From positions 175 to 64,174 of the forward strand of contig JADHLZ010000005.1 of the NCBI GenBank assembly GCA_016780345.1: 64,000 nt of DNA. The letters run 5' to 3'. The DNA is from Flavobacteriaceae bacterium (GTDB lineage Bacteria; Bacteroidota; Bacteroidia; Flavobacteriales; Flavobacteriaceae). The notes beneath the pieces were generated by a model. The model had not been told where the DNA came from, ran no database searches, and saw only the letters and a program-made list of their open reading frames with translations. Made by a program: the position numbers and the translations under genes. Position 1 is the stretch's first letter; the number at the start of each line of letters is the position of its first letter. This document shows positions 14,771 through 63,904 of this stretch, piece by piece.

Positions 14771-14802
14771 ATTAACTAAAAAGGATTATAAAAGGTAAGT
14801 TG

Positions 14803-14810: not shown

Positions 14811-14845
14811 TAATATATTTAAATAAGAATTTTAAAATAATAATT

Positions 14846-15262
14846 ATGATTAATAAAATCAAATTCTCGTTTTTTGTTTTTTTTACTATTAATTTTATCT
14901 TCAGTCAAGATAATTTAGCTGAAATTAATTTTAAAAAAACTGTAATTGATTATGGAATTATTGAATATGATGCCGATGGTAGTAGAATTTTTGAGTTTAC
15001 CAACACCGGAAATGCTCCTTTAATTTTTACAAGAATTTTTTCATCATGCGGGTGTACAATCCCAAAAAAACCTGAAGAACCAATTTTACCAGGTAAATCA
15101 GGTGAAATTCAAGTTAATTATGACACTAAAAGAACTGGAATTTTTCAAAAAGCCATAACTGTTATGTCAAATGCAAAAACACCCAATATAATTTTAAGAA
15201 TTAAAGGTGAAGTTCTTCCTAAACTAGATGAAGTAGAGGAAGATGAAAATAAAGACAAATAA
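14846..15262 (+). CDS. DUF1573 domain-containing secreted protein
   Basis: 138 aa with a signal peptide. FEFTNTGNAPLIFTRIFSSCGCTIP is the characteristic DUF1573 core. Confidence 0.8.
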   Translation: MINKIKFSFFVFFTINFIFSQDNLAEINFKKTVIDYGIIEYDADGSRIFEFTNTGNAPLIFTRIFSSCGCTIPKKPEEPILPGKSGEIQVNYDTKRTGIFQKAITVMSNAKTPNIILRIKGEVLPKLDEVEEDENKDK

Positions 15263-15279
15263 ATCATTAAATCTAGCTT

Positions 15280-31146: not shown

Positions 31147-31149
31147 TTT

Positions 31150-32610: not shown

Positions 32611-32614
32611 ACTT

Positions 32615-35214: not shown

Positions 35215-37581
35215 ATGAAAAAACTATTATTAGTACTATTGTTTTTTGGCGTAAGCTGTCAGCAAAACAACGATGTAAAATCATTTATTGATTTAATTCC
35301 AAGTAATCCATTATTGATTATAAAAAACAGCAAGGATTTTAATAACAGCTTAGTTAATTTTAATAAGAATTTAAATAAACTTCTATTAAAAAAATCAGAC
35401 TCTATTTTAGATTATAAACTCGAATCAGAAAGTTTGATTAGCTATCATAAAATTGGCAAAAATGAAATAAAGCCTATATCATTTAGATATTTTAATGAAG
35501 GGTATTATAAAAACAGAAATATTATTGATTCTGTACTTTATGATGGTTATATTATAAAAAAAATAGGTAATGAAGAGTATTTTTATTTCTCTACTGTAAA
35601 AAATAATATTTTAATTCAATCTGAGAGTAAATTATTAATTGAAAACTCTATCAGAAACTCAAACTTGGTTAGTAAAAAATTAGACCAAGACCTACTTGAT
35701 TTAAACAAAATTTCAAATTCTAATACAGTATTATTTGTTTCAGAAAAATTAAAAAATTTCATAGACAACAAAGACCTTAACTATTTTTTTGAAATTAACA
35801 ATCTTTCAAGCTGGTTTCAATTTGATGTTGATTTAAATAAAAATGGAATCATCTTAAATGGCGTTTCATTTCAAAATGATTCAATTATAAGACCAATAAA
35901 TTACTTAAATGGGATAAATCCATCAGAAAGTGAACTGCTAAACTTAGTCCCAAATAATTTTAACGATTTTAAAAGTTTTGTTTTTGATTTTAAGCAATAC
36001 ATGATAAACATTGAAAAATTTGAATCAATTACAGAAATTGAAAAAATAAAAAACGATTCAATATTATTTGATGTAAAGGAATTTGCAGTTTTAAGTTCAA
36101 TAAAAGATTCATTAATAATGGTAAATTTTAAAAGTTCTGAATCTTTTGAAAACCTTATAAATTTAAATATTACTGATAGCTACAAATACAGAAACTTTAC
36201 TATTAATAAAATTGATAACGATCTATTTAATTTTAATCGAATAAAATTTTACAACTTTAAATCAAATCAAAAGTATTTTACACAAATAGAAAACAACATC
36301 ATCGTTGGAAATTCTAATGAGGGAATTGAAAATCTTCTCAGTAACTTATCCATTACCTCAACACTAAAAAATAACCTAGATTTTGTTCAAATTCAAAATC
36401 AAATTCCTGAAAAAAGTAATTATTTAGGCGTAACGAATATTGAAAAAAGCAAAAGTTCTACATTGAATGAACTGGGATTGTCATCAAAAGATTACCCTTA
36501 CAAAGTAAATTTAATAACTCTTGAAAATAATTTTTTATATAATATACATACAGTTTTAAAAATCACTAAAAATAATAACGTTGATAAAATTAATTTGAAT
36601 GGAAATTTTAAAGCAGAATTCCCTATAAATTTTTCACCAAAATTTGTTACAAACTATATTACAAACAAAAAAGAAATTATTTTTCAAGATCATTTAAATA
36701 ATTTATATCTAATATCGTTGGATGGAGAATTGATTTGGAAAAAAAATATTAAGAATAAAATAATTGGAAACATTCATCAAATTGATTTATATAAAAATGG
36801 TAGGCTACAATTTGCATTTAGTACAACAAAGGATTTCCAAATCTTAGATAAAAATGGAAATATTGTAAAAAAAGTTGAACATAACAATAAAGTTGGTCTT
36901 TCAATATTTGATTATGATAAAGTAAAAAACTATAGATTCTTTTTACTTGGAAACAATTTGAAACTGATCAATTCAAACATGGATAATGTTAAGGGTTTTA
37001 ATAAAAAAACTCTTAAAGGACAATTTGTTAATAGTCCTAAACATTATAGAATAGGTTCAAAAGATTATTTAATCTTTAATGTTGACAATAAGATTATTAT
37101 AACGGATAGAAGAGGTGATATCAGAATAAAAAATAATTTAAATAATATTGAAAATGAAATTTACTTATATCAAAATTATTTTACCACAATCGATACTAAT
37201 AATAATTTAATCAAGTTGGATACAAATGGAAAAGTTAGTAAAAAACCTCTACCACTTGAAAGCATGTATTTAATCAATGCTAATGAGGATAACATAATTT
37301 ATTTAAGTGAAAATATTTTAAATATTAATGACAATATCATTGAATTAAAATTTGGAAATTATTTAAAACCAAAATTATTTAGAACAAAATCAAAAGATTT
37401 AATTTCAGTAATTAACAAAGAAGAAAACAAAGTTTACATGTTTAATTCGTTAGGTGAAGAAATTAAAAACTTCCCAATTTTTGGTTCCAGTTCAATTGAT
37501 TTTTATGAGAATAAAAAATCAAAAAAATACATAACATGTGTGGGAGAATCTAATGAAATTTTAGTTTACTCTTTCAATTAA
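35215..37581 (+). CDS. Large Asn/Lys-rich lipoprotein of unknown function, with a C-terminal repeat region suggesting a beta-propeller
   Basis: 788 aa with lipobox FFGVSC. Five or more repeats of a hydrophobic-x-D/S-x-x-G-x-hydrophobic-x-K pattern in the last ~300 aa (LDGELIWKK, LDKNGNIVKK, TDRRGDIRIK, LDTNGKVSKK, NSLGEEIKNF). Confidence 0.6.
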   Translation: MKKLLLVLLFFGVSCQQNNDVKSFIDLIPSNPLLIIKNSKDFNNSLVNFNKNLNKLLLKKSDSILDYKLESESLISYHKIGKNEIKPISFRYFNEGYYKNRNIIDSVLYDGYIIKKIGNEEYFYFSTVKNNILIQSESKLLIENSIRNSNLVSKKLDQDLLDLNKISNSNTVLFVSEKLKNFIDNKDLNYFFEINNLSSWFQFDVDLNKNGIILNGVSFQNDSIIRPINYLNGINPSESELLNLVPNNFNDFKSFVFDFKQYMINIEKFESITEIEKIKNDSILFDVKEFAVLSSIKDSLIMVNFKSSESFENLINLNITDSYKYRNFTINKIDNDLFNFNRIKFYNFKSNQKYFTQIENNIIVGNSNEGIENLLSNLSITSTLKNNLDFVQIQNQIPEKSNYLGVTNIEKSKSSTLNELGLSSKDYPYKVNLITLENNFLYNIHTVLKITKNNNVDKINLNGNFKAEFPINFSPKFVTNYITNKKEIIFQDHLNNLYLISLDGELIWKKNIKNKIIGNIHQIDLYKNGRLQFAFSTTKDFQILDKNGNIVKKVEHNNKVGLSIFDYDKVKNYRFFLLGNNLKLINSNMDNVKGFNKKTLKGQFVNSPKHYRIGSKDYLIFNVDNKIIITDRRGDIRIKNNLNNIENEIYLYQNYFTTIDTNNNLIKLDTNGKVSKKPLPLESMYLINANEDNIIYLSENILNINDNIIELKFGNYLKPKLFRTKSKDLISVINKEENKVYMFNSLGEEIKNFPIFGSSSIDFYENKKSKKYITCVGESNEILVYSFN

Positions 37582-49124: not shown

Positions 49125-50102
49125 ATGTTTAAGACCAAGTATTATTACGATTCAAAAACGTTATCATATAGAAAGATAAAAGTCAGCAAAGGAGTTCACT
49201 TTAGAAACATTTTGGCTTTTATTGTAGCTTCGGTTTTTTTTGGGGTTTTAACACTGTTTTTACTATTACAATCTCCTATTTTAAATACACCAACTGAACT
49301 TTCACAAGCCAGGGAAATTTCCAATTATAAATTTCAATTTGAACTCATAAACAAAAAACTTGATCAATTAAATTTAGTTCTTGAAGAAATTGAACAAAGA
49401 GACAACAATATTTACAGAGTATTGTTTGAAACAAATCCTATACCAAGTGAGGTAAGAAAAGCTGGTTTTGGTGGTGTTAACAGATACAAAAACCTTGAAG
49501 GATTCGATAACTCAAAGTTAATTACTGAAACAACTAATAGAATTGAAATTCTAACAAAACAAATAGTTATTCAATCCAAATCATTAGATGAAATAGAAAG
49601 ATTAGCAATTGAAAAAGAAAAACTTTTATCTGCAATTCCTTCAATTCAACCAATCAAAAGAGGAGATCTTACTCGAATGGCTTCTGGCTACGGATACAGA
49701 ACTGACCCATTTAATAAAACTAGAAAAATGCATTACGGAATGGATTTTACAGCTCCAAGAAATACACCTGTTTATGCAGCTAGTGATGGAATGGTAATTA
49801 GAGCTGACTCAAGATCTACAGGATATGGTAAACATATAAGAATTGATCATGGATTTGGATATATGACATTATATGCTCATTTAGATAAATATAATGTCAT
49901 CAGAAATCAAAAGGTAAAAAAAGGAGATATTATTGGATATGTTGGAAATACAGGAAGATCACAAGCCCCTCACCTACATTATGAAGTTTGGAAGGATAAA
50001 AAAAGAGTTAATCCTATCAATTATTATTTAGGAAACTTAAGCCCTGAAGAATTTGATGATTTAATAAAATTGGCAAATCAAGAAAATCAATCTTTAGACT
50101 AA
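49125..50102 (+). CDS. M23 family metallopeptidase (membrane-anchored, coiled-coil linker)
   Basis: 325 aa with HYGMDF, GNTGRSQAPHLHYEV (HxH) and one N-terminal TM segment. Confidence 0.9.
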   Translation: MFKTKYYYDSKTLSYRKIKVSKGVHFRNILAFIVASVFFGVLTLFLLLQSPILNTPTELSQAREISNYKFQFELINKKLDQLNLVLEEIEQRDNNIYRVLFETNPIPSEVRKAGFGGVNRYKNLEGFDNSKLITETTNRIEILTKQIVIQSKSLDEIERLAIEKEKLLSAIPSIQPIKRGDLTRMASGYGYRTDPFNKTRKMHYGMDFTAPRNTPVYAASDGMVIRADSRSTGYGKHIRIDHGFGYMTLYAHLDKYNVIRNQKVKKGDIIGYVGNTGRSQAPHLHYEVWKDKKRVNPINYYLGNLSPEEFDDLIKLANQENQSLD

Positions 50103-50419
50103 TGCATTTAGATCTTCCACCAAAACTATACTACAGTATAGGTGAAGTTTCTAAAGCGTTTAAAGTAAATGCTTCCTTAATTAGATTTTGGGAAAAAGAA
50201 TTTACAGATTTAAACCCAAAAAAAAATAATAAAGGAACACGAAGATATTCATCAGTTGATATTGAAAAACTTCAAATTATACATCACTTAGTTAAAGAAA
50301 AAGGATACACTTTAGATGGAGCTAAGGAACAAATAAAAGTTTTAAATAAAAACTTTGAAATAATAAAAAAGCTTGAAAAAATTAAATCTACCCTAATTAA
50401 CATTAAAAAGGAACTTTAA
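50102..50419 (+). CDS. MerR family transcriptional regulator
   Basis: 105 aa with HTH YSIGEVSKAFKVNASLIRFWEKEF. TAATG overlap with the M23 gene. Confidence 0.8.
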   Translation: MHLDLPPKLYYSIGEVSKAFKVNASLIRFWEKEFTDLNPKKNNKGTRRYSSVDIEKLQIIHHLVKEKGYTLDGAKEQIKVLNKNFEIIKKLEKIKSTLINIKKEL

Positions 50420-51773: not shown

Positions 51774-52655
51774 TCAATTGTTTAGGTAACCAAACTTTTT
51801 AAGTTTGTTTTCGTCTGATCTCCAATTTTTATTGACTTTTACATTTAAATCAATATATATATGTTTTTTAAAGAATTCTTCCAATTCTAGCCTTGAATCT
51901 GTACCTAATTTTTTTATAGCTGCTCCTTTATGACCAATTAGTATTCCTTTTTGTGATGGTCTTTCAACAAAAATTAATGAGCGGATTCTTATAATATTAT
52001 CTTCTTCTTTGAACTCTTCAGTAACTATTTCAACAGAATAAGGAATTTCTTTGCTATAATTTACTAATATTTTTTCTCTAATAATTTCATTCACAAAAAA
52101 TCTTTCATTTTTATCTGTTAATTGATCTTTTGGAAAAAAAGGAGGGTGATTAGGGCTTAGTTCAACTAACCTCTCTAATAATTTATCAATGTTAAAAGAT
52201 TCCTTTACAGAAATTGGCCATATTTCAGCATTAGGCAACTTTTTAGTCCAAAAAGAAATTTCATCATCTAATTTTTCTTGGTTAATTAAATCAATTTTAT
52301 TAATAACCAAAATTAAAGGAGTTTTAATATTTTCAATTTTTGAAAAAAATTTTTCATCTTTAAGAATATGGTCTTTATGTTCTACTACATATAATAGGAT
52401 ATCAGCATCCTCTGTTGTTTGAGAAACTGAACCCATCATAAGTTCATGTAACTTATGTAAAGGTTTAATTATTCCAGGAGTATCAGAAATTACTAATTGA
52501 TAATTTTTATTATTTAAAATAGCTAATATTCTATGTCTAGTAGTCTGAGCTTTTGAAGTAATTATTGAAAGTTTGTGTCCAATTAAGGAATTAGTTAATG
52601 AAGATTTTCCAACGTTAGGATTGCCAATAATATTTACAAAACTTGATTTATGCAT
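51774..52655 (-). CDS. era: GTPase Era
   Basis: 293 aa with GNPNVGKSS, DTPG, NKID and a C-terminal KH domain (GILIGHKGAAIKKLG). Confidence 0.96.
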   Translation of the reverse strand: MHKSSFVNIIGNPNVGKSSLTNSLIGHKLSIITSKAQTTRHRILAILNNKNYQLVISDTPGIIKPLHKLHELMMGSVSQTTEDADILLYVVEHKDHILKDEKFFSKIENIKTPLILVINKIDLINQEKLDDEISFWTKKLPNAEIWPISVKESFNIDKLLERLVELSPNHPPFFPKDQLTDKNERFFVNEIIREKILVNYSKEIPYSVEIVTEEFKEEDNIIRIRSLIFVERPSQKGILIGHKGAAIKKLGTDSRLELEEFFKKHIYIDLNVKVNKNWRSDENKLKKFGYLNN

Positions 52656-52662
52656 ACAAATG

Positions 52663-52670
52663 CAAAGTTA
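52663..52670 (-). promoter_or_regulatory. -7 promoter box TAACTTTG (minus strand), 7 nt upstream of the era ATG
   Basis: Plus strand reads CAAAGTTA. The spacing implies a leaderless or near-leaderless era mRNA. Confidence 0.4.
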
Positions 52671-52840
52671 GTGTTGATAATTTACTTTATGGCAATTTTT
52701 AGTTAATTTATAAAAAAGTAATGTTTTTTAGAGTAAATATTCAATTATTAATATCAATTAATGCGCATATTTAAAATATGAGGTTATTTTATATAAAAAA
52801 TATGTTTAAAAATTAAAAAAAAAAAATTAATTATGGTACT

Positions 52841-52848
52841 TATTTTTG
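52841..52848 (+). promoter_or_regulatory. Only exact -7 box (TATTTTTG) on the plus strand of the 445-bp spacer, 252 nt upstream of the glucan operon ATG
   Basis: Exact TAnnTTTG. If used, it gives an unusually long ~245-nt leader. Confidence 0.3.
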
Positions 52849-53100
52849 AAAAACACCTATACAATACTTAAACATTTTATAGTTTAAAACTCAACATTAT
52901 TAAAATAAAAAAGTTATGTCTGATTACAGATTGTTTTATCTCACTAAACAATTTTATAAAATAGTTGTAAAGGTTTTATCAGAAAAACATATGGATATAA
53001 GGTATATTTTTAAATGTGTGTAAATTGAGATTCAAAATCTATTATTCACTCATACAAAACAACATCAAAACCGAAGAAAAATATTAAAATTAAATTATAG

Positions 53101-56100
53101 ATGGCAGAAAAGATTCATATTGGAAACTTAGAATCATTTGATGATGTAAAAAAAGTTGAAGGAAAACAAATCAAAATTAATAACGAAAATTTTTATAAAA
53201 TATCCAACGTAGACAGAATGCGTCCATTTTTTATGAGTATAGTTAGTAACTCAAATCATTGGATGTTTATTTCTAGCACAGGAAGTCTTACAGCTGGAAG
53301 AAAAAATAGTGAATATGCACTATTTCCATATTATACGGACGATAAAATTACTGAATCCAACGAAACAACAGGAAGTAAGACAATTCTGATTGTTAAAATA
53401 AATGAGAAAAGATTTCTCTGGGAACCCTTTTCTGAAAGATATGCTAGAATCTACAAAACTGAAAGAAATATTTACAAAAACACAATTGGTAATAAAGTAA
53501 TTTTTCAAGAAATAAATCATGACTTAAATGTAGAATTTAGCTATCAATGGAATTCTAGTAATAAATATGGGTTTGTTAGAAAATCTATAATAAAAAATGT
53601 TTCAAGCAATAGTGTAGAAATTGATATTCTAGATGGAATTCAAAACATCTTACCATACGGAGTTGGAGAAGGTCTTCAAAATGCTCAAAGCAATCTTGTT
53701 GATGCTTACAAAAAATGCGAATTGGAACAAAAAAGCAAATTAGGTATTTATTCACTTAGTGCAATCATTGTTGATAAAGCAGAGCCTAGCGAAGCTTTAA
53801 AAGCAAATACTGCTTGGTCTTGTGACTTAAAAAATGCAAAATATCTTTTGTCCTCTTTGCAAATAGATAATTTTAGAAAGGGAATTAATCTTGTCAATGA
53901 AACGGAAATTAAAGCTGAAAAAGGAGCTTATTTTGTTAACCAGTCAATAAAACTTGAGGACAAATCCAGTGAAGAATGGATGATTGTTTGTAACGTCAAC
54001 CAAACTATTTCTGATGTAGTAAGATTAAAAGAAGCTATAATTCACGACAAAGAATTAAAACAAAAAGTTTCAGATGATGTAATACTTGGATCATCAAACT
54101 TAAGAGAATTAGTAGGTAATGCTGACGGATTACAGTTAACAAATGACAAACTCAGGATGATTAGACATTTTTCAAATACAATGTTTAACATCATGAGAGG
54201 AGGTATTTTTGATGATAATTACCAAATTGAAAAAAATGATTTTGTTCCTTACATTAAAAAAGCGAACATTTTAATTTATCAATCATTCTCTGATACTTTG
54301 GGTAATCTTCCAGAAACATTTACTCTTCATGAACTAAAATCAATTTCTGTAAATATATCTAACCATGATTTTAAGAGGTTATGTACTGAGTATCTTCCTT
54401 TAAAATTTAGTAGAAGACACGGAGATCCAAGTAGACCTTGGAATAAATTCTCTATCAACACAAGAAGCGAAGTAGATGGATCAAAAATCCTAGATTATCA
54501 AGGGAACTGGAGAGATATTTTCCAAAACTGGGAGGCTTTAGCTTACTCCTATCCTCAATTTATAGAGGGTATGATTCATAAATTTTTAAATTCATCAACT
54601 TTTGATGGATACAACCCATACAGAGTTACTAAGGATGGTTTTGATTGGGAAACTATTGAACCTGATAATCCTTGGTCATATATTGGTTATTGGGGCGATC
54701 ACCAAATAATTTATTTATTAAAATTTTTAGAATTTATTGAAGATCATTTTCCTGGAAAACTATATAAATATTTCTCAAAAAGTTTATTTGTGTATGCGAA
54801 CGTTCCTTACAAAATAAAATCGTATGAGGATATTTTAAAGGACTCTAAAAACACTATCGATTACGATCACGAAAATGAAATAATCATTGAAAAACGAAGA
54901 AAAGAAATTGGAATTGATGGATCATTATTATACAATAATAAATCTGAAATACACAGAGTAAATTTCATTGAAAAAATATTAGCTACTCTACTTGCTAAAG
55001 TTTCAAATTTTGTTCCTGAGGGTGGAATTTGGATGAACACACAAAGACCTGAATGGAACGATGCCAACAATGCTTTGGTAGGAAATGGAATTTCCATGGT
55101 CACCCTATATTACTTAAGAAGATTTGTAAATTTCTTTAATTCAGTCTTGGAAAATACTGAATACATTTCAGTTGAAATATCATCAGAATTATTTAAGTTT
55201 TTCAATGATATTTACAATAGTTTAAATGATAATAAAACCGTTTTAAACTCATCTGTTTCCGATCAAGATAGAAAAAAAATAGTTGATTTACTTGGTAAAG
55301 CAGGCTCTAATTATAGAAACATAATTTACGACAATAGTTTCTCCGGATTAAAATCTGCTATTGGCATAAAAGAAATTAAGGACTTAACCAAACTCCTTCT
55401 AAAGTACATTGACCATTCAATTAACTCAAATAAAAGAAAAGATAAACTCTATCATGCATATAATCTGTTAACTATTGAAAAAGATAAACTATCAGTTTCT
55501 TATTTACCTGAAATGCTTGAAGGACAAGTTGCTGTTTTAAGTTCTGGTTATTTAAATTCAAAAGAGAATTTAGAAGTACTTGATGCTTTAAAAGCTAGTA
55601 AGTTGTTCAGAGACGACCAGTACAGCTATATACTATACCCTGATAAAGATTTAGGTCTGTTTTTGGATAAAAACAATATTCCAAATTCAAAAATAAATGA
55701 ATCTAATCTACTAAAACAGCTATTAAAAGATGGAAATCAACAAATAGTTTCAAAAGATTGTATGGGAGATTACCATTTTAATTGTGATTTTAACAATGCG
55801 AATGGGTTGATTGATGAATTAAATTCTCTTCCTGACAAATACTCTGATTTAGTTGGAAAAGATTATAACACTGTTCTTCAAATATTTGAAGATGTGTTTA
55901 ATCATAAAGAATTTACAGGAAGATCCGGAACATTTTTTGGTTACGAAGGCCTAGGGTCAATATATTGGCACATGGTTTCTAAACTTTCTTTAGCTGTTTT
56001 AGAGACTACAAAAAAAGCAATCGATGAAGATGATCAAGCTATCATTGGAAAATTCTTTGATCATTATTTTGAAATACTTGAAGGAATTGGAGTCAATAAA

Positions 56101-56550
56101 TCTCCAATGCTTTATGGAGCATTTCCTACAGACCCATATTCACATACTCCTGCTGGAAAAGGTGCTCAACAACCTGGAATGACTGGCCAAGTTAAAGAAG
56201 ATATAATTTCAAGATTTGGAGAACTTGGTGTTGAAGTTAAAAATGGTGTTATAAGCTTTAACCCTGAGATGCTAAGAAATGAAGAGTTTTTGAAAGAAAA
56301 TGAAACTTTCAAATATGTGAACCTTTCAAAAGAAAAATGTCTTCTTGATGTTGAAAAAGGGTCTTTATGTTTTACATACTGTCAAGTCCCAATTATTTAT
56401 TCAAAATCATCAGAAAATAAAATTAAAGTTGATTTCATAAATGGAAAATCTGTTAGTATTCAGGGTAACGAATTAGATACTGAATCTAGCAAATCATTAT
56501 TCAACAGAGAAAACATAATTAAACAAATAAACGTAAGTGTTGTAAAATGA
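53101..56550 (+). CDS. Large cytoplasmic GH94-like glycoside phosphorylase, most likely GH149 beta-1,3-glucan phosphorylase
   Basis: 1149 aa with no signal peptide. Strings match the (alpha/alpha)6 phosphorylase catalytic module: GNWRDIFQNW (RDxxQ), WGDHQIIYLL, RPEWNDANNAL (the DWND-type catalytic Asp, codon 654 at 55060-55062), and GYEGLGSIYWHM. The size and beta-1,3-glucanase neighbourhood fit GH149. Confidence 0.6.
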   Translation: MAEKIHIGNLESFDDVKKVEGKQIKINNENFYKISNVDRMRPFFMSIVSNSNHWMFISSTGSLTAGRKNSEYALFPYYTDDKITESNETTGSKTILIVKINEKRFLWEPFSERYARIYKTERNIYKNTIGNKVIFQEINHDLNVEFSYQWNSSNKYGFVRKSIIKNVSSNSVEIDILDGIQNILPYGVGEGLQNAQSNLVDAYKKCELEQKSKLGIYSLSAIIVDKAEPSEALKANTAWSCDLKNAKYLLSSLQIDNFRKGINLVNETEIKAEKGAYFVNQSIKLEDKSSEEWMIVCNVNQTISDVVRLKEAIIHDKELKQKVSDDVILGSSNLRELVGNADGLQLTNDKLRMIRHFSNTMFNIMRGGIFDDNYQIEKNDFVPYIKKANILIYQSFSDTLGNLPETFTLHELKSISVNISNHDFKRLCTEYLPLKFSRRHGDPSRPWNKFSINTRSEVDGSKILDYQGNWRDIFQNWEALAYSYPQFIEGMIHKFLNSSTFDGYNPYRVTKDGFDWETIEPDNPWSYIGYWGDHQIIYLLKFLEFIEDHFPGKLYKYFSKSLFVYANVPYKIKSYEDILKDSKNTIDYDHENEIIIEKRRKEIGIDGSLLYNNKSEIHRVNFIEKILATLLAKVSNFVPEGGIWMNTQRPEWNDANNALVGNGISMVTLYYLRRFVNFFNSVLENTEYISVEISSELFKFFNDIYNSLNDNKTVLNSSVSDQDRKKIVDLLGKAGSNYRNIIYDNSFSGLKSAIGIKEIKDLTKLLLKYIDHSINSNKRKDKLYHAYNLLTIEKDKLSVSYLPEMLEGQVAVLSSGYLNSKENLEVLDALKASKLFRDDQYSYILYPDKDLGLFLDKNNIPNSKINESNLLKQLLKDGNQQIVSKDCMGDYHFNCDFNNANGLIDELNSLPDKYSDLVGKDYNTVLQIFEDVFNHKEFTGRSGTFFGYEGLGSIYWHMVSKLSLAVLETTKKAIDEDDQAIIGKFFDHYFEILEGIGVNKSPMLYGAFPTDPYSHTPAGKGAQQPGMTGQVKEDIISRFGELGVEVKNGVISFNPEMLRNEEFLKENETFKYVNLSKEKCLLDVEKGSLCFTYCQVPIIYSKSSENKIKVDFINGKSVSIQGNELDTESSKSLFNRENIIKQINVSVVK

Positions 56551-57842
56551 ATATGATATATATAAATAACTCAAAACTTAACGATTTAATCAGAATCTCA
56601 CTGCTTACCATGTTGGTTAGTAGCTTATTTATATCATGTGAATTTTCAGAAAATAAAATGAAAGAGAAAAAAGAAATTACAGCTCAAGAAATTTTAAATG
56701 ATCCAAGTTATTTAGCTATTTCTTATGGTGGATATAGACATAGAACTAGAGATATTCAGCCTACTATGGATGAATTAAAAGATGATTTAAAAATACTTTC
56801 ATCTTTAGGAATTAAAATTTTAAGGACCTATAATTTACAACTTCCGCAAGCACCTAATATAATAAAAGCAATTAAAGAAATTAAAGAATCAGATCCTGAC
56901 TTTGAAATGTATGTTATGCTTGGAGCTTGGATTGACTGTGAAAATGCTTGGACTGACAGCCCAAATCATGAAAAAGAGGATGAATCTGCCAATGCAATAG
57001 AAATTCAAAAGGCAATAAATCTTGCAAATATGTATCCTGAAATAGTTAAAATCATAGCTGTAGGAAATGAGGCAATGGTTAATTGGGCATGGAGTTACTA
57101 TGTTAAACCAGGTGTAATTTTAAAATGGGTTAATCATTTACAAGATTTAAAGAAGCAGAAAAAATTACCAGAAAATTTATGGATTACAAGTTCTGATAAT
57201 TTTGCGTCATGGGGAGGTGGTGATGAATCGTACCACACAAGCGATTTAAACTCATTGATTAAGTCAGTAGATTTTATATCCATGCATACTTATGCATTTC
57301 ACGATACTCATTATAATCCCTCTTTTTGGAATTTTAACAAAGATTTAAAAAATGAGTTTTCAGATTTAGAAATAATAAATAAATCAATGGAAAATGTTCA
57401 ACAGTATACTATTTCACAATACAACAGTGTAAAAGATTATCTAAAGAAAATTGGAGTTGAAAAAGAAGTTCACATTGGTGAATTAGGCTGGTCAACCGTT
57501 TCAAATGAACTATATGGTGATAAGGGAACACATGCTGCAGATGAATATAAACAAGCTCTATTCTTTGATAAAATAAGAGAATGGACTACTAAAGAAAAAA
57601 TTAGCTGCTTTTATTTTGAGGCATTTGATGAACCATGGAAAGATGCTCAAAATATTAATGGTTCAGAAAACCACTTTGGATTATTTACTGTTGATGGTAA
57701 AGCAAAATTTGCGTTGTGGAAAAATGTTGATGAAGGGAACTTTAAAGGACTTACAAGAAATGGAAATTCTATAATCAAAACATTTGATGGAAATAGTGAA
57801 ATTTTATTCAATAGTATTCTAACTCCACCTTTAATCGATTAA
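56547..57842 (+). CDS. GH17 family beta-1,3-glucanase/transglycosylase, lipoprotein
   Basis: 431 aa with lipobox SLFISC, acid/base AVGNEAM, nucleophile IGELGWST, and the FYFEAFDEPWK GH17 signature. ATGA overlap with the upstream gene. Confidence 0.8.
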   Translation: MNMIYINNSKLNDLIRISLLTMLVSSLFISCEFSENKMKEKKEITAQEILNDPSYLAISYGGYRHRTRDIQPTMDELKDDLKILSSLGIKILRTYNLQLPQAPNIIKAIKEIKESDPDFEMYVMLGAWIDCENAWTDSPNHEKEDESANAIEIQKAINLANMYPEIVKIIAVGNEAMVNWAWSYYVKPGVILKWVNHLQDLKKQKKLPENLWITSSDNFASWGGGDESYHTSDLNSLIKSVDFISMHTYAFHDTHYNPSFWNFNKDLKNEFSDLEIINKSMENVQQYTISQYNSVKDYLKKIGVEKEVHIGELGWSTVSNELYGDKGTHAADEYKQALFFDKIREWTTKEKISCFYFEAFDEPWKDAQNINGSENHFGLFTVDGKAKFALWKNVDEGNFKGLTRNGNSIIKTFDGNSEILFNSILTPPLID

Positions 57843-57845
57843 ATT

Positions 57846-58856
57846 ATGAAATTAAAATATTCTCTTATCTTAATTCTTTTAATTTCGATACTAAGTTGGA
57901 ATTTTTACTATTGTTGTGAAGAAAATAATGTAGAAATTGAAGAAAGGAATTTTTTAGTTAATAATCAAAGATATTTCATTAAAGGAGTTTGCTACGACCC
58001 TGTTCCATTAGGTTCTAAAAAAAGAAGTTTCGACAAAATTGATGAAGATTTGAAGTTAATGGTTGAAGCTGGGATTAACACTATAAGAGTGTATTCACCA
58101 ATTGATGATATCTCAATTCTTAATAAAATTGATAATGCTGGTCTTAAAATAATAATGGGATTTGGATATAATCAAGAAGGTTATTACGATATTCTTTCAG
58201 GATCCTTTGAAAACTACATTAAAAAGTATAAAAACCATAATGCTATATTGTTTTGGGAGCTTGGTAATGAATATAATTATCATTCAGAATGGTTTGAAGG
58301 AGATATTAATAATTGGTACGAAGAATTAAATGAAGCTGCGTATAAAATAAAACAAGTAGATAGTTCCAGACCAGTAACCACTGCTCATGGTGAAATTCCA
58401 GAAAAAATTCTTATTGAAAAACTTAATAATATTGACGCATGGGGAATTAATGTTTATAGATGGGATGACCCAAGTGATTTGCTTCAGGATTGGGTAAAAA
58501 TTAGTAAAAAACCATTATACCTTTCTGAAGCGGGAAGTGATAGTTACATGACCATTGAAAATTATGGTTATTCAAAAGGGGAAAACCAACTTGCTCAGGC
58601 CGAAGCAAACGCAAAAATTTTAGATGCTGTATTTAATAATTCAGATAAAGTTTCAGGTGTTTTAATATTTCAATTTGTGGATGGATTATGGAAAGCTGGA
58701 AATCCTTACAAACAAGACATTGGTGGATGGGCTCCAAATAGCATTGGAGTTCCATATGATGGAGCTCCCAACGAGGAATTCTGGGGCATTGTAGATATTG
58801 AAAGAAATAAAAAGAAAACTTTTGAAGTGATTAAAAACAAGTACAACAACAATTAA
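57846..58856 (+). CDS. Exported clan GH-A (beta/alpha)8 glycoside hydrolase or transglycosylase, family not assignable by eye (GH72-like strings; GH5/GH2-barrel/GH128/GH158 also possible)
   Basis: 336 aa with a signal peptide ending ..FYYCC. FWELGNEYN (acid/base NE) and LYLSEAGSD (nucleophile E). FLVNNQRYFIKGVCY, INTIRVY and AWGINVYRW are collinear with Gas1-type GH72 strings. Confidence 0.55.
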   Translation: MKLKYSLILILLISILSWNFYYCCEENNVEIEERNFLVNNQRYFIKGVCYDPVPLGSKKRSFDKIDEDLKLMVEAGINTIRVYSPIDDISILNKIDNAGLKIIMGFGYNQEGYYDILSGSFENYIKKYKNHNAILFWELGNEYNYHSEWFEGDINNWYEELNEAAYKIKQVDSSRPVTTAHGEIPEKILIEKLNNIDAWGINVYRWDDPSDLLQDWVKISKKPLYLSEAGSDSYMTIENYGYSKGENQLAQAEANAKILDAVFNNSDKVSGVLIFQFVDGLWKAGNPYKQDIGGWAPNSIGVPYDGAPNEEFWGIVDIERNKKKTFEVIKNKYNNN

Positions 58857-58862
58857 ATCAAC

Positions 58863-60344
58863 ATGAACGACCTTTTTAAATCTGTAATAATTACTCTAGC
58901 ATTTTGTTCGTGCCAAAATAATTCTGAAATGGAAATTAAAATTTTTGAAACATCTAGAAATGGAAATAAATTAAAAGAATTAAAAGAATTTAATATCTCA
59001 GAAAAAATCTCTGAAATTAATTTAAAAACTTATAAAAAATATCAGACTATTACAGGTTTTGGTGGGGCATTCACGGAATCATCTGCTTATTTACTAAATC
59101 AAATGAGTAAAGAAAAAAGAAAAGAAATTTTAAATGCCTATTTTTCCGAGAAAGGTTCAAATTATTCTCTTACTAGAACTCACATGAATTCATGTGATTT
59201 TTCCATTTCAAATTATTCTTATAGCCCCGTTGAAGGGGATATAAATCTTGAACATTTTTCAGTTAAAGAAGACATGGATGATATAATTCCCATGATAAAA
59301 GAAGCTATGGAAGTCTCTCAAGATGGATTTAAAATTTTTGCTTCTCCTTGGACAGCAGCTCCATGGATGAAAGACAATAATGAATGGAAAGGAGGAAAAT
59401 TACTGCCAAAATACTACGATACTTGGGCCCTGTTTTTCTCAAAATATGTTGATGCTTACAAGGAACAAGGTATAAACATATGGGGTTTTACAGTTGAAAA
59501 TGAACCTCACGGAAATAATTCAAGCTGGGAGAGCATGCATTATACACCTGAAGAAATGACACATTTTGTAAAAGAATACTTAGGACCTCAACTGGAAAAA
59601 GACGGTAAAGGAGATCTCGTAATTCTTGGTTACGACCAAAATAGAGCAGATCTAAAAAAATGGGTTGACTCAATGTTTGAAAACGAAGAATCATCTAAAT
59701 ATTTTGATGGAACTGCTGTTCATTGGTACGATAGTACATATGAATTTTATCCTGACGAACTTCAATATGCTCATAACAAAGCACCAAATAAATATTTAAT
59801 TCAAACTGAAGCATGTGTTGATTCAGAAATTCCTCATTGGAATGATGATGATTGGTATTTTAGAAAAGAGGCAACTGATTGGGGATACGATTGGAGAGAA
59901 GATGAAAAAAAATATTTACATCCAAAATATGCACCGTTCAACAGATACTCAAGAGATATAATCGGATCTTTAAATAACTGGGTTGATGGATGGGTAGACT
60001 GGAATATGGTATTAGATACGCAAGGAGGTCCAAATTGGGCTAATAATTGGTGCGTAGCTCCAATTATCGTTGATCCTACAATTGATGAAATATACTACAC
60101 CCCACTTTATTATGTGATGACCCATTTTAGCAAGTACATAAGACCTGGTGCAGAAGTTATCGAAGCAGAAAATTCCGATCCGGAATTAATGGTTACTGCA
60201 GCACTCAATCCTGATAAAAGTATTGCTATTGTTTTATTTAATGAAGGTTTTGAAGAAAAAAGCTTCAATCTAAATTTAAATGGATTTTCTAAATCTGTAT
60301 CTATTAGTCCTCAAGCAATTCAAACCATAACATTAGAAAACTAA
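58863..60344 (+). CDS. GH30 family glycoside hydrolase (glucosylceramidase-like; likely beta-1,6-glucosidase/glucanase debranching laminarin), lipoprotein
   Basis: 493 aa with lipobox LAFCSC, GFGGAFTES, acid/base TVENEPH, and nucleophile IQTEACV. Confidence 0.85.
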   Translation: MNDLFKSVIITLAFCSCQNNSEMEIKIFETSRNGNKLKELKEFNISEKISEINLKTYKKYQTITGFGGAFTESSAYLLNQMSKEKRKEILNAYFSEKGSNYSLTRTHMNSCDFSISNYSYSPVEGDINLEHFSVKEDMDDIIPMIKEAMEVSQDGFKIFASPWTAAPWMKDNNEWKGGKLLPKYYDTWALFFSKYVDAYKEQGINIWGFTVENEPHGNNSSWESMHYTPEEMTHFVKEYLGPQLEKDGKGDLVILGYDQNRADLKKWVDSMFENEESSKYFDGTAVHWYDSTYEFYPDELQYAHNKAPNKYLIQTEACVDSEIPHWNDDDWYFRKEATDWGYDWREDEKKYLHPKYAPFNRYSRDIIGSLNNWVDGWVDWNMVLDTQGGPNWANNWCVAPIIVDPTIDEIYYTPLYYVMTHFSKYIRPGAEVIEAENSDPELMVTAALNPDKSIAIVLFNEGFEEKSFNLNLNGFSKSVSISPQAIQTITLEN

Positions 60345-60348
60345 AACT

Positions 60349-61767
60349 ATGGAAAATAATTCTTTAAAAAGTTTGGAAGGAATGGGCCAAAAGATAGCTT
60401 TTGGATTTGGAATGTTAGCGAATCAAATGTTTCCTGCAGCTTTAGGAGTTTTTATTATTGTTCTAGTTCAGGATTTAGGTTTCGCTGCACTTTTATGGGG
60501 AATAATACAATTTGCACCAAGAATTTTTGATGCTATAACAGACCCTCTAATGGGATTTATTTCGGACAATACTAAGTCTAGGTGGGGAAGAAGAAGACAG
60601 TACGTTTTTATTGGTGGAATTTTAATGGGGTTAGCTTACATAGCTATGTGGCAATTACATAAAGATGATGGTATTGTTTACAATTTTATTTACTTCTTTT
60701 CTTGGTCATTAGTCTTCTATTTAGGATTAACCATTTTTAGCGTTCCATATGTAGCAATGGGCTATGAAATAAGTGATGATTTTCACGAGCGAACTCAAAT
60801 TATGGCTATAGCTCAATTTATTGGTCAATGGGCATGGGTAATTGCTCCTTGGTTTTGGGTTGTTTTATATGATCCAACATGGTTTCCTGAAGGGGCTGGT
60901 CAAGGCGTAAGAGATTTGTCTATTTGGGTGGCAATCCCATGTACTATTTTTGCAATTATACCTGCAATATTTATAAAAAGTGAATCGACTCTAAATAGAA
61001 AAGATTTTTTACCTGTAAATGCAGGTTATATTAGAAAAAGTATTAAAGGAATCTTTATTTCAGCTTTTGAAGCTTTCAAAATAAAGCAATTTAAAAAAAT
61101 TGCATTTGCAACATTTTTAATTTTTAACTCATTCCAAGTTATTGCTGCATTTACGTTTTTAATAATAGTCCACTACTTATTCAAAAGTGATCCTGCAAGT
61201 GCTGGAAGCTGGCCTGCCTTACATGGTTCTGTTGGAGCTCTAATTACTTCATTTTTAGTTATTCCACTAATTACTTTAATTTCTAAAAAAATTGGAAAAA
61301 AGAAAGCATTTATTTTATCACAATTAATTTCAATTATTGGATATATTTTGTTTTGGTTTCTATTTATTCCTGGTAAACCTTATATGTTTTTATTTGCACT
61401 ACCGTTTCATTCGTTTGGTATAGGTAGTTTATTTACGATAATGATGTCCATGACTGCGGATGTATGTGATTTAGATGAACTTGAAAATGGAACGCGAAGA
61501 GAAGGTGTTCTTGGGGCTGTGTACTGGTGGATGGTAAAACTTGGTTTTGGTGTAGCCGCCCTATTCAGTGGATTCATCCTGTGGTTAGTAGGATTTGACC
61601 CAAATCAAGTCAAAGAAACTGCTCTTACAGGAATGAGGTTGTTTTATACATTTCTTCCAATAACTGGTGTGATTCTGGCAATATTAATAATGAAAGATTA
61701 TGATATTAGTGAGGAAAGAGCAAATGAGATTAAAGAACAATTGAAGTTAAAAAAGAACAATAAATAA
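60349..61767 (+). CDS. GPH-family (MelB-like) MFS glycoside:cation symporter
   Basis: 472 aa with about 12 TM segments and the GPH signature DAITDPLMGFISDNTKSRWGRRRQY. Confidence 0.85.
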   Translation: MENNSLKSLEGMGQKIAFGFGMLANQMFPAALGVFIIVLVQDLGFAALLWGIIQFAPRIFDAITDPLMGFISDNTKSRWGRRRQYVFIGGILMGLAYIAMWQLHKDDGIVYNFIYFFSWSLVFYLGLTIFSVPYVAMGYEISDDFHERTQIMAIAQFIGQWAWVIAPWFWVVLYDPTWFPEGAGQGVRDLSIWVAIPCTIFAIIPAIFIKSESTLNRKDFLPVNAGYIRKSIKGIFISAFEAFKIKQFKKIAFATFLIFNSFQVIAAFTFLIIVHYLFKSDPASAGSWPALHGSVGALITSFLVIPLITLISKKIGKKKAFILSQLISIIGYILFWFLFIPGKPYMFLFALPFHSFGIGSLFTIMMSMTADVCDLDELENGTRREGVLGAVYWWMVKLGFGVAALFSGFILWLVGFDPNQVKETALTGMRLFYTFLPITGVILAILIMKDYDISEERANEIKEQLKLKKNNK

Positions 61768-61770
61768 AAT

Positions 61771-62655
61771 ATGTCTTACAGAAAGGAAAAGTTACATTCA
61801 TTAACAGGAATTGATTTAAATACTGTCTCTGAATCAGAATTAAAAAAGCTTTGTAATAAATTTTTAAAACAAGGAATTCATGGATTGTGTTTTAGTGCTT
61901 ATGATGAAGGACAAGAACCAGGTGATAATATTTCCGACAAGCAAATTTTAAGAAAATTAAATATTATCAAACCTTATATTAAATGGATTAGAACATTTTC
62001 TTGTATGGAGGGAAATGAAAGAATTCCAATTCTTGCTAAACAATTAGGTTTAAAAACACTCGTTGGTGCTTGGCTCAGTGATAATGAGCTAAAAAATGAA
62101 AAAGAAATCAATGGATTAATTTCTTTATGTAAATCTGGATATGTTGATGTTGCAGGAGTTGGAAATGAAGTTTTATATAGAAAAGAAATGTCTGAAACTG
62201 AACTTATCGACTACATTAATTTAGTCAAAAAAGAAATCGGAAATATTCCTGTTGGTTATGTTGATGCTTATTATGAATTTTCTTCAAGACCTGATCTTTC
62301 AGATTCTTGTGATGTTATCTTAGCTAATTGCTATCCTTATTGGGAAGGATGCAGCTTAGAATACTCCTTAATGTATATGAAACAAATGTATTTTGAGGCT
62401 AAGTCAGCTGGAAAAGGAAAAAAAGTAATCATTACTGAAACTGGTTGGCCAAGCCAAGGTGCTAGTTTAAGAGGAGCTCACCCTTCAAAGGAGAATGCTC
62501 TAAAATACTTTGTAAATGCACAAAACTGGTCATTTGAAGATGACATTGAAATGTTTTATTTTTCTGCTTTTGATGAATCTTGGAAAGTTGGTGTTGAAGG
62601 AGATGTAGGAGCATACTGGGGATTATGGGATAAAGATGAAAAATTAAAATTTTAA
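61771..62655 (+). CDS. GH17 family enzyme without signal peptide (predicted cytoplasmic)
   Basis: 294 aa with GVGNEVLY, canonical nucleophile motif ITETGWPSQG, and FYFSAFDESWK. The N-terminus MSYRKEKLHSLTGIDLN is hydrophilic. Confidence 0.8.
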   Translation: MSYRKEKLHSLTGIDLNTVSESELKKLCNKFLKQGIHGLCFSAYDEGQEPGDNISDKQILRKLNIIKPYIKWIRTFSCMEGNERIPILAKQLGLKTLVGAWLSDNELKNEKEINGLISLCKSGYVDVAGVGNEVLYRKEMSETELIDYINLVKKEIGNIPVGYVDAYYEFSSRPDLSDSCDVILANCYPYWEGCSLEYSLMYMKQMYFEAKSAGKGKKVIITETGWPSQGASLRGAHPSKENALKYFVNAQNWSFEDDIEMFYFSAFDESWKVGVEGDVGAYWGLWDKDEKLKF

Positions 62656-62657
62656 TA

Positions 62658-63590
62658 TTGGATTACTCTAAAGCACTTAATATAGATCTTGGTAAAGCAA
62701 TTTGCTACTCTGGATATAGAAAAGGTCAAACACCCGGAGAAATTTTTCCAACTTACAATCAGGTAAAAGAAGATCTTTTAATTATTAGTAAAACATGGAA
62801 ATACATTAGATTGTATAGTTGTGATTTTCATTCTAAAACTGTTTTAGAGGTCATAAAAAATGAAAAACTTTCCCTAAGAGTCATGCTTGGTTGCTATATT
62901 GAAGCAGAAATTAATAATTACTCTTGTCCATGGGGAGGTGAATATTCTGACGAACAATTAGAAATTAATAAAAAAAGAAATCTTCAAAGAATAGATTTGT
63001 TAGCAAAATTCGGTAATGAATACACTGACATTATTTTTTCTCTTTCTATTGGAAATGAAGCTTGTGTTAGTTGGACTGATCATATGGTTCCTGTTGAAAG
63101 CGTTGTCAAGTATGCAAAAATTATCAAAAATAAAGCCAATCAACCTGTAACCTTCTGTGAAAATTACGTTACATGGGTTAAAAAATTAGAAAAACTAGTA
63201 GAAGTAATTGATTTTATTTCTATTCATAGCTATCCTCAATGGGAAAATGTGTATATAAACAATGCCTTAAATTATACAATTGACAATTTTAATTTGGTTC
63301 GTTCTAAATACCCTGATAAATTAATTGTCATAACTGAAGCAGGTTGGACTACTTCAACCAATGATAAAGAAATTAAAAAACACAATACAAGCGAGCATTT
63401 TCAAAAAGTATATTATAAACAATTGTCCAAGTGGAGTGAAGATGAAAAGGTTCTAACTTTTATATTTGAAGCATTTGACGAACCCTGGAAAGGATCAAAT
63501 GACCCATTTGAGCCTGAAAAACATTGGGGTTTATTTTATGAAAACAGAACTCCTAAAATTGTAATGAATAAAGAATTATATAAAAAGTAA
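62658..63590 (+). CDS. GH17 family enzyme without signal peptide (predicted cytoplasmic), paralog of the preceding gene
   Basis: 310 aa with a TTG start. SIGNEACV, ITEAGWTTS and FIFEAFDEPWK. The N-terminus MDYSKALNIDLGKA is hydrophilic. Confidence 0.75.
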   Translation: MDYSKALNIDLGKAICYSGYRKGQTPGEIFPTYNQVKEDLLIISKTWKYIRLYSCDFHSKTVLEVIKNEKLSLRVMLGCYIEAEINNYSCPWGGEYSDEQLEINKKRNLQRIDLLAKFGNEYTDIIFSLSIGNEACVSWTDHMVPVESVVKYAKIIKNKANQPVTFCENYVTWVKKLEKLVEVIDFISIHSYPQWENVYINNALNYTIDNFNLVRSKYPDKLIVITEAGWTTSTNDKEIKKHNTSEHFQKVYYKQLSKWSEDEKVLTFIFEAFDEPWKGSNDPFEPEKHWGLFYENRTPKIVMNKELYKK

Positions 63591-63626
63591 TTATAGATAT
63601 TTCTTCTCAATAAAATTAATTTATTA

Positions 63627-63634
63627 TATATTTG
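63627..63634 (+). promoter_or_regulatory. -7 promoter box TATATTTG, 11 nt upstream of tRNA-Met
   Basis: Exact TAnnTTTG. The spacing fits a short leader that RNase P would remove. Confidence 0.5.
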
Positions 63635-63645
63635 GGATTCAAAAT

Positions 63646-63718
<73 letters not shown>

Positions 63719-63726
63719 CTAAACAA

Positions 63727-63757
63727 GACGGATCGGTATTTCTACCGGTCCGTTTTT
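63727..63757 (+). terminator. Rho-independent terminator after tRNA-Met (and the glucan operon)
   Basis: ACGGATCGGTA-TTTC-TACCGGTCCGT. An 11-bp stem with one G:U pair and a 4-nt loop, followed by TTTT. Confidence 0.85.
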
Positions 63758-63904
63758 CATTTATACCCCCGTCATCCCCTGTAAATGAATGGATTAACCT
63801 AAAAATCGGGTTGAGATCGGAGGTTCGATATTTGAATGAAGTTGTCTACTAAAACAATAAAATGGTTAAAATATTAAAAAGTTTAATTTTTTTTATATTT
63901 AAGT

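Follow-up and report, generated by a model that had tools for sequence, protein, structure and literature searches.

Laminarin is among the largest carbon fluxes in the ocean, and its uptake by Bacteroidota is thought to be "selfish" and to depend on the outer-membrane pair SusC/SusD (SusCD). What, then, does a set of laminarin enzymes do when it is found alone among housekeeping genes with no such pair beside it? The question is raised by a seven-gene operon near the end of a 64,000-nucleotide (nt) stretch of DNA (the window) from contig JADHLZ010000005.1 of a Flavobacteriaceae bacterium (assembly GCA_016780345.1). Our answer, to which we assign a probability of roughly two in three (0.68), is that the operon is the free-standing periplasm-to-cytoplasm module of a Bacteroidota laminarin locus of the glycoside hydrolase (GH) type GH149/GH17/GH30, with uptake and regulation supplied in trans. 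Such a module would either have been separated from, or never have been joined to, the surface module bguR-susC-susD-PKD-GH16. For the enzymatic steps that we propose, the support is 57 to 66% identity with enzymes of characterised activity, together with solved structures that match over the full length. Uptake and regulation in trans are inferred from a shared cis-element and from comparative context.

The comparative context is extensive. A scan of the GTDB species representatives returned at least 599 GH149 loci, and we kept the best 80 and mapped onto them the seven window proteins together with the SusC, SusD, PKD and GH16 proteins of one locus, which were checked against Pfam. The best GH149 match among the loci listed is 65% identical to that of the window. 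Sixty kept loci extend at least 9 kb 3' of GH149, and the genes found there are largely those of the window: GH17A in 56, the MFS symporter in 57, GH30 in 47 and GH17B in 51. In 20 of those 51, GH17B takes the form of an MFS-GH17 fusion. Of the 60 loci, 11 have a small clan GH-A enzyme and 7 a third GH17 paralogue, GH17C. On the other side, 65 kept loci extend at least 8 kb 5' of GH149. Same-strand SusC/SusD genes occur there in 21, and GH16, PKD or large-GH surface genes in another 36, in which SusCD presumably lies further out; only 8 (~12%) show nothing resembling a polysaccharide utilization locus (PUL). Since the downstream synteny is shared and surface genes lie upstream in most loci, the window block is the standard downstream half of a GH149/GH17/GH30 laminarin locus. 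The complete arrangement can be read in a Pontimicrobium locus (L012), which runs Y_Y_Y/GerE regulator-SusC-SusD-PKD-GH16-GH149-GH17A-GH-A-GH30-MFS-GH17B; Pfam confirms its SusC, SusD, PKD and GH16, and the gene that directly precedes susC has the Y_Y_Y plus GerE architecture of BguR. L007 and L011, too, have the module standing alone among housekeeping genes. An earlier note on this DNA, made from the sequence alone, had called the pathway non-canonical, a description that we cannot retain: in ordinary SusCD laminarin PULs the same module is conserved as the downstream half, and clusters that lack susCD have already been published (PMC5827456).

The second line of evidence is a tandem direct repeat in the spacer that precedes the operon. 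It is the first of two motifs common to bguR-susC intergenic regions, its consensus is yACCyATACA-N1-3-CCACAACAT, and we scored it with a position weight matrix (PWM) built from nine instances. The copy upstream of GH149 is the sole match of at least 16 bits on either strand of the 64 kb. In 20 Mb of first-order Markov sequence of window composition, no match reached 22 bits and one reached 20, so that its chance expectation is below 2e-5; its 10-mer core, for which chance predicts 0.15 occurrences in the window, is present there once. A sister genome keeps the element at 22.3 bits, plus the weaker copy at -54, and matches of 16 bits or more would be expected ~3e-4 times in the spacer. Elsewhere the element always lies on the coding strand, 183-370 nt (once 433 nt) before a start codon. 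It stands before susC (L012, L029, L043 and L053), before the large multimodular GH gene of over 20 loci, before genes for PKD proteins, before one GH16 gene (L039) and before GH149 itself (L010, L045 and L078). BguR is needed for transcription of the whole laminarin PUL of F. agariphila, and a conserved motif has been reported between bguR and the first gene (bioRxiv 10.64898/2026.01.10.698779). The window operon would belong to a laminarin regulon, transcribed from its own promoter under a regulator encoded at another place in the genome. Because BguR genes are reported solely beside SusCD loci for beta-glucan, the outer-membrane module probably lies away from the operon as well.

The other motif common to those intergenic regions, TGTATGTTTTTTGTTGAGG, is very strongly conserved in several genera, ~90-130 nt downstream of the tandem repeat and 70-200 nt before the start codon; we saw it in the bguR-susC intergenic region of L012 (1342-1573), in the equivalent regions of other loci, and before large-GH and PKD genes.

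The coordinates of the operon and of the elements that bound it are collected in Table 1.

Table 1. Features of the laminarin operon and its borders (window positions)
Feature	Positions	Strand	Remarks
GH149 beta-1,3-(oligo)glucan phosphorylase, ORF1	53101..56550	+	1149 aa; predicted cytoplasmic
GH17A endo-beta-1,3-glucanase lipoprotein, ORF2	56547..57842	+	orthologue of FbGH17A and MlGH17A
Small clan GH-A glycosidase, ORF3	57846..58856	+	336 aa; signal peptide, Cys23/24; distantly GH158-like
GH30 (GH30_1-like) lipoprotein, ORF4	58863..60344	+	Pfam GH30 plus C-terminal beta-sandwich
GPH/MFS_2 cation symporter, ORF5	60349..61767	+	predicted inner-membrane oligosaccharide import; no GH17 fusion
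GH17B, ORF6	61771..62655	+	no signal peptide, cytoplasmic; position of MlGH17B
GH17C, third GH17 paralogue, ORF7	62658..63590	+	TTG start; no signal peptide
Spacer between era and the operon, control region	52656..53100		445 nt, non-coding; era on - strand
Tandem direct-repeat cis-element CACCTATACAATACTTAAACAT	52854..52875	+	247 nt before the GH149 ATG; PWM score 22.1 bits
Second, weaker match to the element	53047..53068	+	15.5 bits; 54 nt before the ATG; conserved in sister
tRNA-Met (CAT), bounds the operon	63646..63719	+	Rfam
Intrinsic terminator	63725..63756	+	14-bp hairpin and T-run; first convincing terminator past the operon

The pathway that these genes would support begins outside the window. 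Laminarin or laminari-oligosaccharides would be taken across the outer membrane by a transporter whose genes lie elsewhere; the SusCD of a second beta-glucan locus is the likeliest one. In Formosa, FbGH30 and FbGH17A have been placed in the periplasm, where they act after SusCD-dependent uptake (PMC6246565). By close homology to that characterised enzyme, the GH30 lipoprotein would strip the beta-1,6 glucose branches. Its gene product matches PF02055 (2e-80) and PF17189 (GH30C, 9.7e-11), and its nearest solved structures are glucosylceramidases; it is 66% identical to the FbGH30 of Formosa Hel1_33_131, and the subfamily is assigned by that identity only. We regard it as probably a beta-1,6-glucosidase or debranching enzyme. 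The GH17A lipoprotein, likewise by close homology to characterised enzymes, would cut the beta-1,3 backbone to a degree of polymerization (DP) of about 2-4. Its translation shows a hydrophobic leader followed by Cys31, and the catalytic motifs GNE and GELGW are visible in it; it matches the crystallised endo-laminarinase FbGH17A (PDB 6FCG) at 5e-165 over residues 20-429 and is 57% identical to the Formosa Hel1_33_131 orthologue.

The small enzyme encoded between these two would probably add endo-beta-1,3 activity, if its distant likeness to GH158 is a guide. Pfam recovers only a GH2_C-type TIM barrel (1.4e-13), and the single sequence matches GH158 weakly (3.7e-5). A profile of 14 orthologues reaches the GH158 structures 9ORO (9e-12) and 6PAL (1e-5), over only ~140 of 335 positions and with GH2 barrels scoring nearly equally. 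The catalytic residues E142 (in GNE) and E228 (in SEAG) are invariant among the orthologues. With the GH158 match partial and weak, our assignment stops at a clan GH-A enzyme with both catalytic Glu residues; descriptions of such loci list either "GH0" or GH158 (PMC10108472; bioRxiv 10.64898/2026.01.10.698779).

The GPH symporter would then bring the oligosaccharides in. It matches Pfam MFS_2 (PF13347) at 7.7e-57 over positions 2-426 of 427 and scores 175 bits against TIGR00792, under the cutoff of 231. The conservation of this protein is uneven relative to its neighbours: it is 79-80% identical to its counterparts in L017, L060 and L063, which come from genomes of 41-61% GC, while the enzymes beside it are just 47-62% identical to those same loci and 65-71% identical to L007 and L008. 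Either this transporter subtype is unusually constrained or its history is unlike that of the remaining operon.

In the cytoplasm, GH149 would phosphorolyse the oligosaccharides to glucose-1-phosphate and glucose. The phosphorylase (record MBL6649017.1, locus tag ISP56_01980) scores 1771.8 bits against the NCBIfam equivalog NF058639 (cutoff 1150) over model positions 3-1133 of 1134, and it matches the structures of Pro_7066 (PDB 6HQ6/6HQ8; E = 0, 1561 bits), with residues 12-1148 aligned to 32-1170 of 6HQ6. It has no Pfam match, and its N terminus carries neither a hydrophobic segment nor a signal peptide. In the presence of phosphate, Pro_7066 breaks G3 and G2 down to glucose (PMC6484121), and the cytoplasmic phosphorolysis that the earlier note proposed as the final step agrees with the characterised activity of this enzyme (PMC5827456, PMC6484121).

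The two signal-less GH17 paralogues would reshape or cleave oligosaccharides in the same compartment. GH17B is an orthologue of a laminaribiose-releasing transglycosylase; it matches Pfam GH17 (4e-11), has the fungal glucanosyltransferase RmBgt17A (4WTP, 1.6e-31) as its nearest structure, and is 62-64% identical to orthologues from Flagellimonas/Muricauda (L035, L075). Tyr136, Trp191 and Glu192 are crucial for transglycosylation by MlGH17B (PMC13188888), and the window protein holds all three (GNEVLY136, YPYW191E192); in the alignment, position 136 is Val in GH17C and Met in the fused Formosa domain FbGH17B. GH17B is thus probably a beta-1,3-glucanosyltransglycosylase, and the reading of this paralogue as a simple hydrolase gives way to one modelled on its Muricauda orthologue, a transglycosylase (PMC13188888). 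GH17C scores 28.1 bits against the Pfam GH17 gathering threshold of 28.2 (0.1 under) and matches 6FCG at 3.4e-24; it is a separate paralogue that carries a ~25-residue insertion and more nearly resembles FbGH17A. E133 and E223 are invariant in an alignment of both paralogues and their orthologues. Matches to hidden Markov models and structures otherwise bear out every family that had been proposed (GH149, GH17, GH30, the symporter and two GH17 paralogues), and the localisation pattern is as described: three exported enzymes, a cytoplasmic phosphorylase and two signal-less GH17 proteins. Control of the whole would probably run through the tandem-repeat element that the operon shares with bguR- and susC-led units, the regulator being encoded elsewhere.

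The operon is built as a single tight unit. Seven + strand ORFs are packed into 53101-63590, all intact and with their catalytic motifs present, and their junctions from 5' to 3' measure -4, 3, 6, 4, 3 and 2 nt, exactly as first described; in some gene calls ORF2 begins two codons further on, and its -4 junction becomes +2. The spacer upstream, conserved at 92% in the sister genomes L124-L127, had been taken for the largest in the window. It is effectively the longest: between ORFs of at least 150 aa only the gap at 14739-15279 is larger, and that gap holds a 138-aa ORF, while three others (404-440 nt) come near to it in length. Transcription probably begins in this spacer. Scanning for sigma-70 promoters told us nothing, with 65 sites where 67.7 would be expected, and the only RNAs that Rfam recognised in the window were two tRNAs, with no regulatory RNA inside the spacer or outside it. 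At the other end, the claim that no hairpin precedes the terminator of tRNA-Met is sustained: the terminator-like sites within the operon are weak, lie inside coding sequence and number 6 against 4.1 +/- 2.2 expected by chance, and the strong hairpin follows the tRNA. Although no terminator parts the tRNA from the operon, tRNA-Met is probably transcribed from a promoter of its own. The sequence TAtaTTTG (63627-63634), 12 nt before the tRNA, fits the Bacteroidetes -7 box TAnnTTTG, and conservation with many unrelated contigs begins exactly at 63627. The GC content of the operon is 30.4%, against 27.5% in the remaining window and 28% for the window as a whole, a composition that does not indicate recent horizontal transfer of the block.

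Does the missing surface module lie nearby? No homologue of SusC, SusD, PKD or GH16 was found in the window with phmmer, and the window likewise holds no TonB receptor and no GH3; no BguR homologue (Y_Y_Y, transmembrane segment and GerE, ~940 aa) was found in the window or in the flanks of sister genomes. The window's remaining large or unassigned ORFs are all of the housekeeping kind, among them glutamate synthase, tRNA synthetases, FtsH, a porin and a Met-zincin. The earlier note was therefore right that SusC/SusD, a TonB receptor, GH16 and GH3 are absent from the window, and wrong that it contains no regulator of any kind: a MerR-family gene of 105 aa lies at 50102-50419, with a Pfam match in the identical loci L117-L120, and nothing ties this gene to the operon. 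Four sister long-read contigs of 0.78-1.69 Mb, the 1.69-Mb one in ERZ28548085, extended the search (flank search set L123-L127). They keep the der-era, operon, tRNA-Met layout and are 92.4% identical in nucleotides over 52663-63723. Their next 10 kb encodes hypothetical proteins, YHYH, DUF6796, acyl-CoA dehydrogenase, ankyrin, an AraC-type regulator, DoxX and aconitase, and no Sus gene, TonB receptor or GH16 gene lies within 10 kb on either side of the operon in the four contigs. Homology between window and sisters stops at 63723, at the tRNA end, and the strain's own downstream DNA differs; the source contig, 64,228 nt long, ends within 228 nt of the window end, and the short-read contigs of the population all break inside tRNA-Met. 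In the sisters, then, no SusCD pair adjoins the operon as part of the same locus, and the tRNA and its terminator would intervene anyway. The strict definition of a PUL demands an adjacent susC/susD pair, which the operon lacks; it is accordingly filed as a "CAZyme cluster" (carbohydrate-active enzyme cluster).

Several of these observations weigh against our preferred answer and should be taken together. Neither SusC/D nor a TonB receptor, GH16 or BguR is located in the window or in the 10-kb sister flanks, and among the best 120 of 2497 BguR homologues drawn from 5.8 billion proteins, none lies on a sister contig or bears an ISP56 tag. The motif TGTATGTTTTTTGTTGAGG, so well conserved elsewhere, is missing from the window spacer, where its best match scores 2.4 bits. 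Our element may or may not be the published BguR motif, which appears solely in a figure. Finally, the three lipoproteins may face either the periplasm or the cell surface.

Two other loci of the window deserve mention here. Genes for the large and small subunits of glutamate synthase are followed by a convergent Porin_10 gene (32615-34558; the whole spans 26647-34558). In Formosa Hel1_33_131 a porin clustered with two glutamate synthase genes is extremely abundant on laminarin and on glucose (PMC6246565), and the Porin_10 of the window may offer small solutes a way across the outer membrane. A 788-aa ORF at 35215-37581 (+) matches no Pfam family significantly and shows only a faint beta-propeller match; its homologue adjoins der in the Schleiferiaceae locus L011 (4.8e-26).

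The history of the operon can be followed through its nearest relatives. Measured against the sister genomes, the ratio of nonsynonymous to synonymous substitution rates (dN/dS) is 0.12-0.13 for GH149, 0.17 for GH17A, 0.12 for the GH-A enzyme, 0.08 for GH30, 0.16-0.18 for GH17B and 0.06 for GH17C; values of 0.06-0.18 across six genes mean that the operon is maintained by selection. Synonymous divergence (dS) from the sister species (L124-L127) varies about five-fold along the operon, from 0.10 for GH149 through 0.13-0.14 for GH17A and GH17B and 0.22 for GH30 to 0.45-0.55, the highest values, for the small GH-A enzyme and GH17C. This unevenness suggests recombination within the operon between populations. 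Apparent frameshifts in the sister long-read contigs vary by sample and are probably sequencing errors.

Linkage to era is old. The cluster is followed by a same-strand era in the Schleiferiaceae locus L011, the Cryomorphaceae locus L013 and the Pontimicrobium locus L012, with der as well in L011 and L013; in the window, der and era lie upstream of the operon on the opposite strand. In all four, era thus recurs beside the cluster, in differing orientation. The presence of the operon at this site is more fickle. The earlier note had suggested comparing synteny between era and the tRNA in related bacteria for signs of an insertion, and the comparison was informative: in L096, whose era is ~80% identical in nucleotides, the era start is followed by 128 nt and tRNA-Met with no operon at all, an "empty site" (L096 1-445 against window 52540-52652 and 63627-63831). 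In L089 (79%) the operon adjoins the tRNA, and in L108 and L112 (68%) it lies ~4 kb downstream of the tRNA terminator. Among close lineages, then, the control region with its seven genes behaves like a block that is inserted, deleted or relocated.

The tRNA-Met site itself is a lively one. A scan of metagenomes with the terminator sequence returned 30 contigs with unrelated, variable downstream genes. A serine recombinase remnant at 63678-63830 on the - strand, comprising the last 50 codons (ending in YRTSDLNPIFRLIHSFTGDDGGINEKRTGRNTDPSCLVAGTGLEPVTFGL and a stop), overlaps the 3' part of tRNA-Met and the terminator. An intact recombinase of 549 aa (Resolvase, Recombinase and Zn_ribbon) occupies the same place in L087, L094 and L096, and in L094 there appears to be an ~11-kb integrated element flanked by repeats of the tRNA 3' end and terminator. 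These remnants, intact copies and the L094 element mark tRNA-Met as an integration hotspot, which explains why assemblies break there and why the downstream DNA differs between strains.

With this evidence in hand, the competing accounts of the operon can be weighed. The most serious holds that the cell dispenses with SusCD: GH17A, the GH-A enzyme and GH30 would work at the surface or as secreted enzymes, or oligosaccharides set free by other bacteria would be scavenged, and a porin, the symporter and GH149 would complete a minimal system for a streamlined genome. We think this unlikely, although it has a good deal in its favour. No SusC/D, TonB receptor or GH16 gene occurs in the 64 kb or in the sisters' 10-kb flanks, sister contigs of at most 1.69 Mb suggest a small genome, and stand-alone copies at ~12% of loci argue that the architecture is viable. 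The small GH-A lipoprotein carries acidic residues right after its Cys (CCEENN), which we take to resemble the surface-export signals of Bacteroidota. MlGH17A-type products of DP2-4 (PMC13188888) are porin-sized, and a Porin_10 gene is at hand in the window. Yet the same enzymes act downstream of SusCD in most relatives, their Formosa homologues are placed in the periplasm (PMC6246565), and the cis-element links the operon to a type of regulon headed by bguR and susCD. Several separate laminarin loci are found in streamlined bloom flavobacteria, Cd. Prosiliicoccus among them (PMC10108472), and ~95% of the genome lies beyond the DNA seen here. The specific proposal that a streamlined planktonic flavobacterium uses laminarin without any SusC/SusD, by way of surface lipoproteins or scavenging, porin, symporter and GH149, is in our view slightly more doubtful again. 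Were it true, it would amount to a natural, minimal form of Sus-independent glycan foraging in Bacteroidota, with a retained cis-element that answers to a regulator uncoupled from SusCD.

An altogether different role would be the turnover of a cytoplasmic beta-1,3-glucan, with GH149 run synthetically from glucose-1-phosphate and GH17B building branched storage oligosaccharides. The chemistry is plausible, for GH149 is reversible in vitro with products up to DP 11 (PMC5827456), MlGH17B makes beta-1,6-branched oligosaccharides for which a storage role has been discussed (PMC13188888), and the GH17B of the window retains Y136, W191 and E192. Against this role, three exported hydrolases and an importer are encoded in the operon as well; the cluster is embedded in uptake loci in most genomes, and its homologues are laminarin-induced and required for growth on laminarin (PMC6246565; bioRxiv 10.64898/2026.01.10.698779), so that we rate this role as very improbable. 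That the operon is the decaying, non-functional remnant of a PUL whose SusCD half was lost is an idea prompted by the missing surface module and by the operon-free site of L096, and it is largely refuted: the seven ORFs are intact with their catalytic motifs, dN/dS stays low across ~8% nucleotide divergence, and operon and cis-element alike are conserved in four sister genomes. A free-standing inner module with uptake and regulation in trans remains the reading that we prefer.

Placed beside the known laminarin systems, the operon is an ordinary variant rather than a new pathway, both the module and its susCD-less form having been described before. The PUL of Formosa sp. Hel1_33_131 (Unfried et al. 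2018, PMC6246565; our L016) has the same order GH149, GH17A, GH30, MFS, GH17, with proteins 57-66% identical to those of the window, and its GH17A is the 6FCG match; FbGH30, FbGH17A and MFS-FbGH17B have been characterised, with debranching, endo-cleavage and exo-cleavage as their activities (PMC6246565). In Formosa, however, the MFS is fused to GH17 and the block follows large-GH, GH16 and PKD/CBM genes, whereas the window has an unfused MFS, carries the small GH-A enzyme and GH17C in addition, and lacks an adjacent surface module. The CAZyme set GH149-GH0-GH30_1-GH17 is also that of "variant 1" (Sidhu 2023, PMC10108472) and "variant B" (Krueger 2019, PMC6794258), a PUL that often includes an unclassified GH and is highly expressed in bloom flavobacteria, including the small-genome Cd. 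Prosiliicoccus (PMC10108472; PMC6794258); those PULs are defined around SusC/SusD and GH16, neither of which is near the window operon. The Muricauda lutaonensis PUL that encodes MlGH17A and MlGH17B (PMC13188888) shares the GH17A-GH30-MFS-GH17B core but has a LuxR-type regulator, GH2 and GH16 upstream, and its GH30 is reported without a signal peptide, unlike the window GH30 with its lipoprotein signal. The type II GH149 clusters of Alteromonadales (PMC5827456) share GH149, a cytoplasmic GH17 and an MFS (pfam13347) importer; they come from proteobacteria, however, and a TonB-dependent receptor, a two-component regulator and an extracellular GH16 belong to the cluster.

The closest precedent is the work of Kuhaudomlarp et al. 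2018 (PMC5827456), who found GH149 genes of Bacteroidetes in PULs as well as in "CAZyme clusters lacking susCD-like gene pairs", accompanied by GH3/GH30_1 and GH17/GH16. The window, with GH149, GH17, GH30 and a sugar transporter, falls in exactly the category of their Fig. 7C. That study offers neither mechanism nor regulation for the susCD-less form, to which we add a shared cis-element, an empty site in a relative and data on selection.

What emerges is a view of the inner half of the laminarin pathway (debranching, endo-cleavage, symport and phosphorolysis) as a portable unit with its own control region. In a small-genome planktonic lineage this unit sits alone among housekeeping genes, under purifying selection, and its presence varies between close relatives. 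In the tandem-repeat element there is a defined sequence by which genomes can be searched for scattered members of the laminarin regulon. If the outer-membrane half lies elsewhere in the genome, the arrangement would be a case of routine regulon organisation; if there is no outer-membrane half, this lineage would offer a natural test of whether laminarin fragments can be scavenged independently of Sus.

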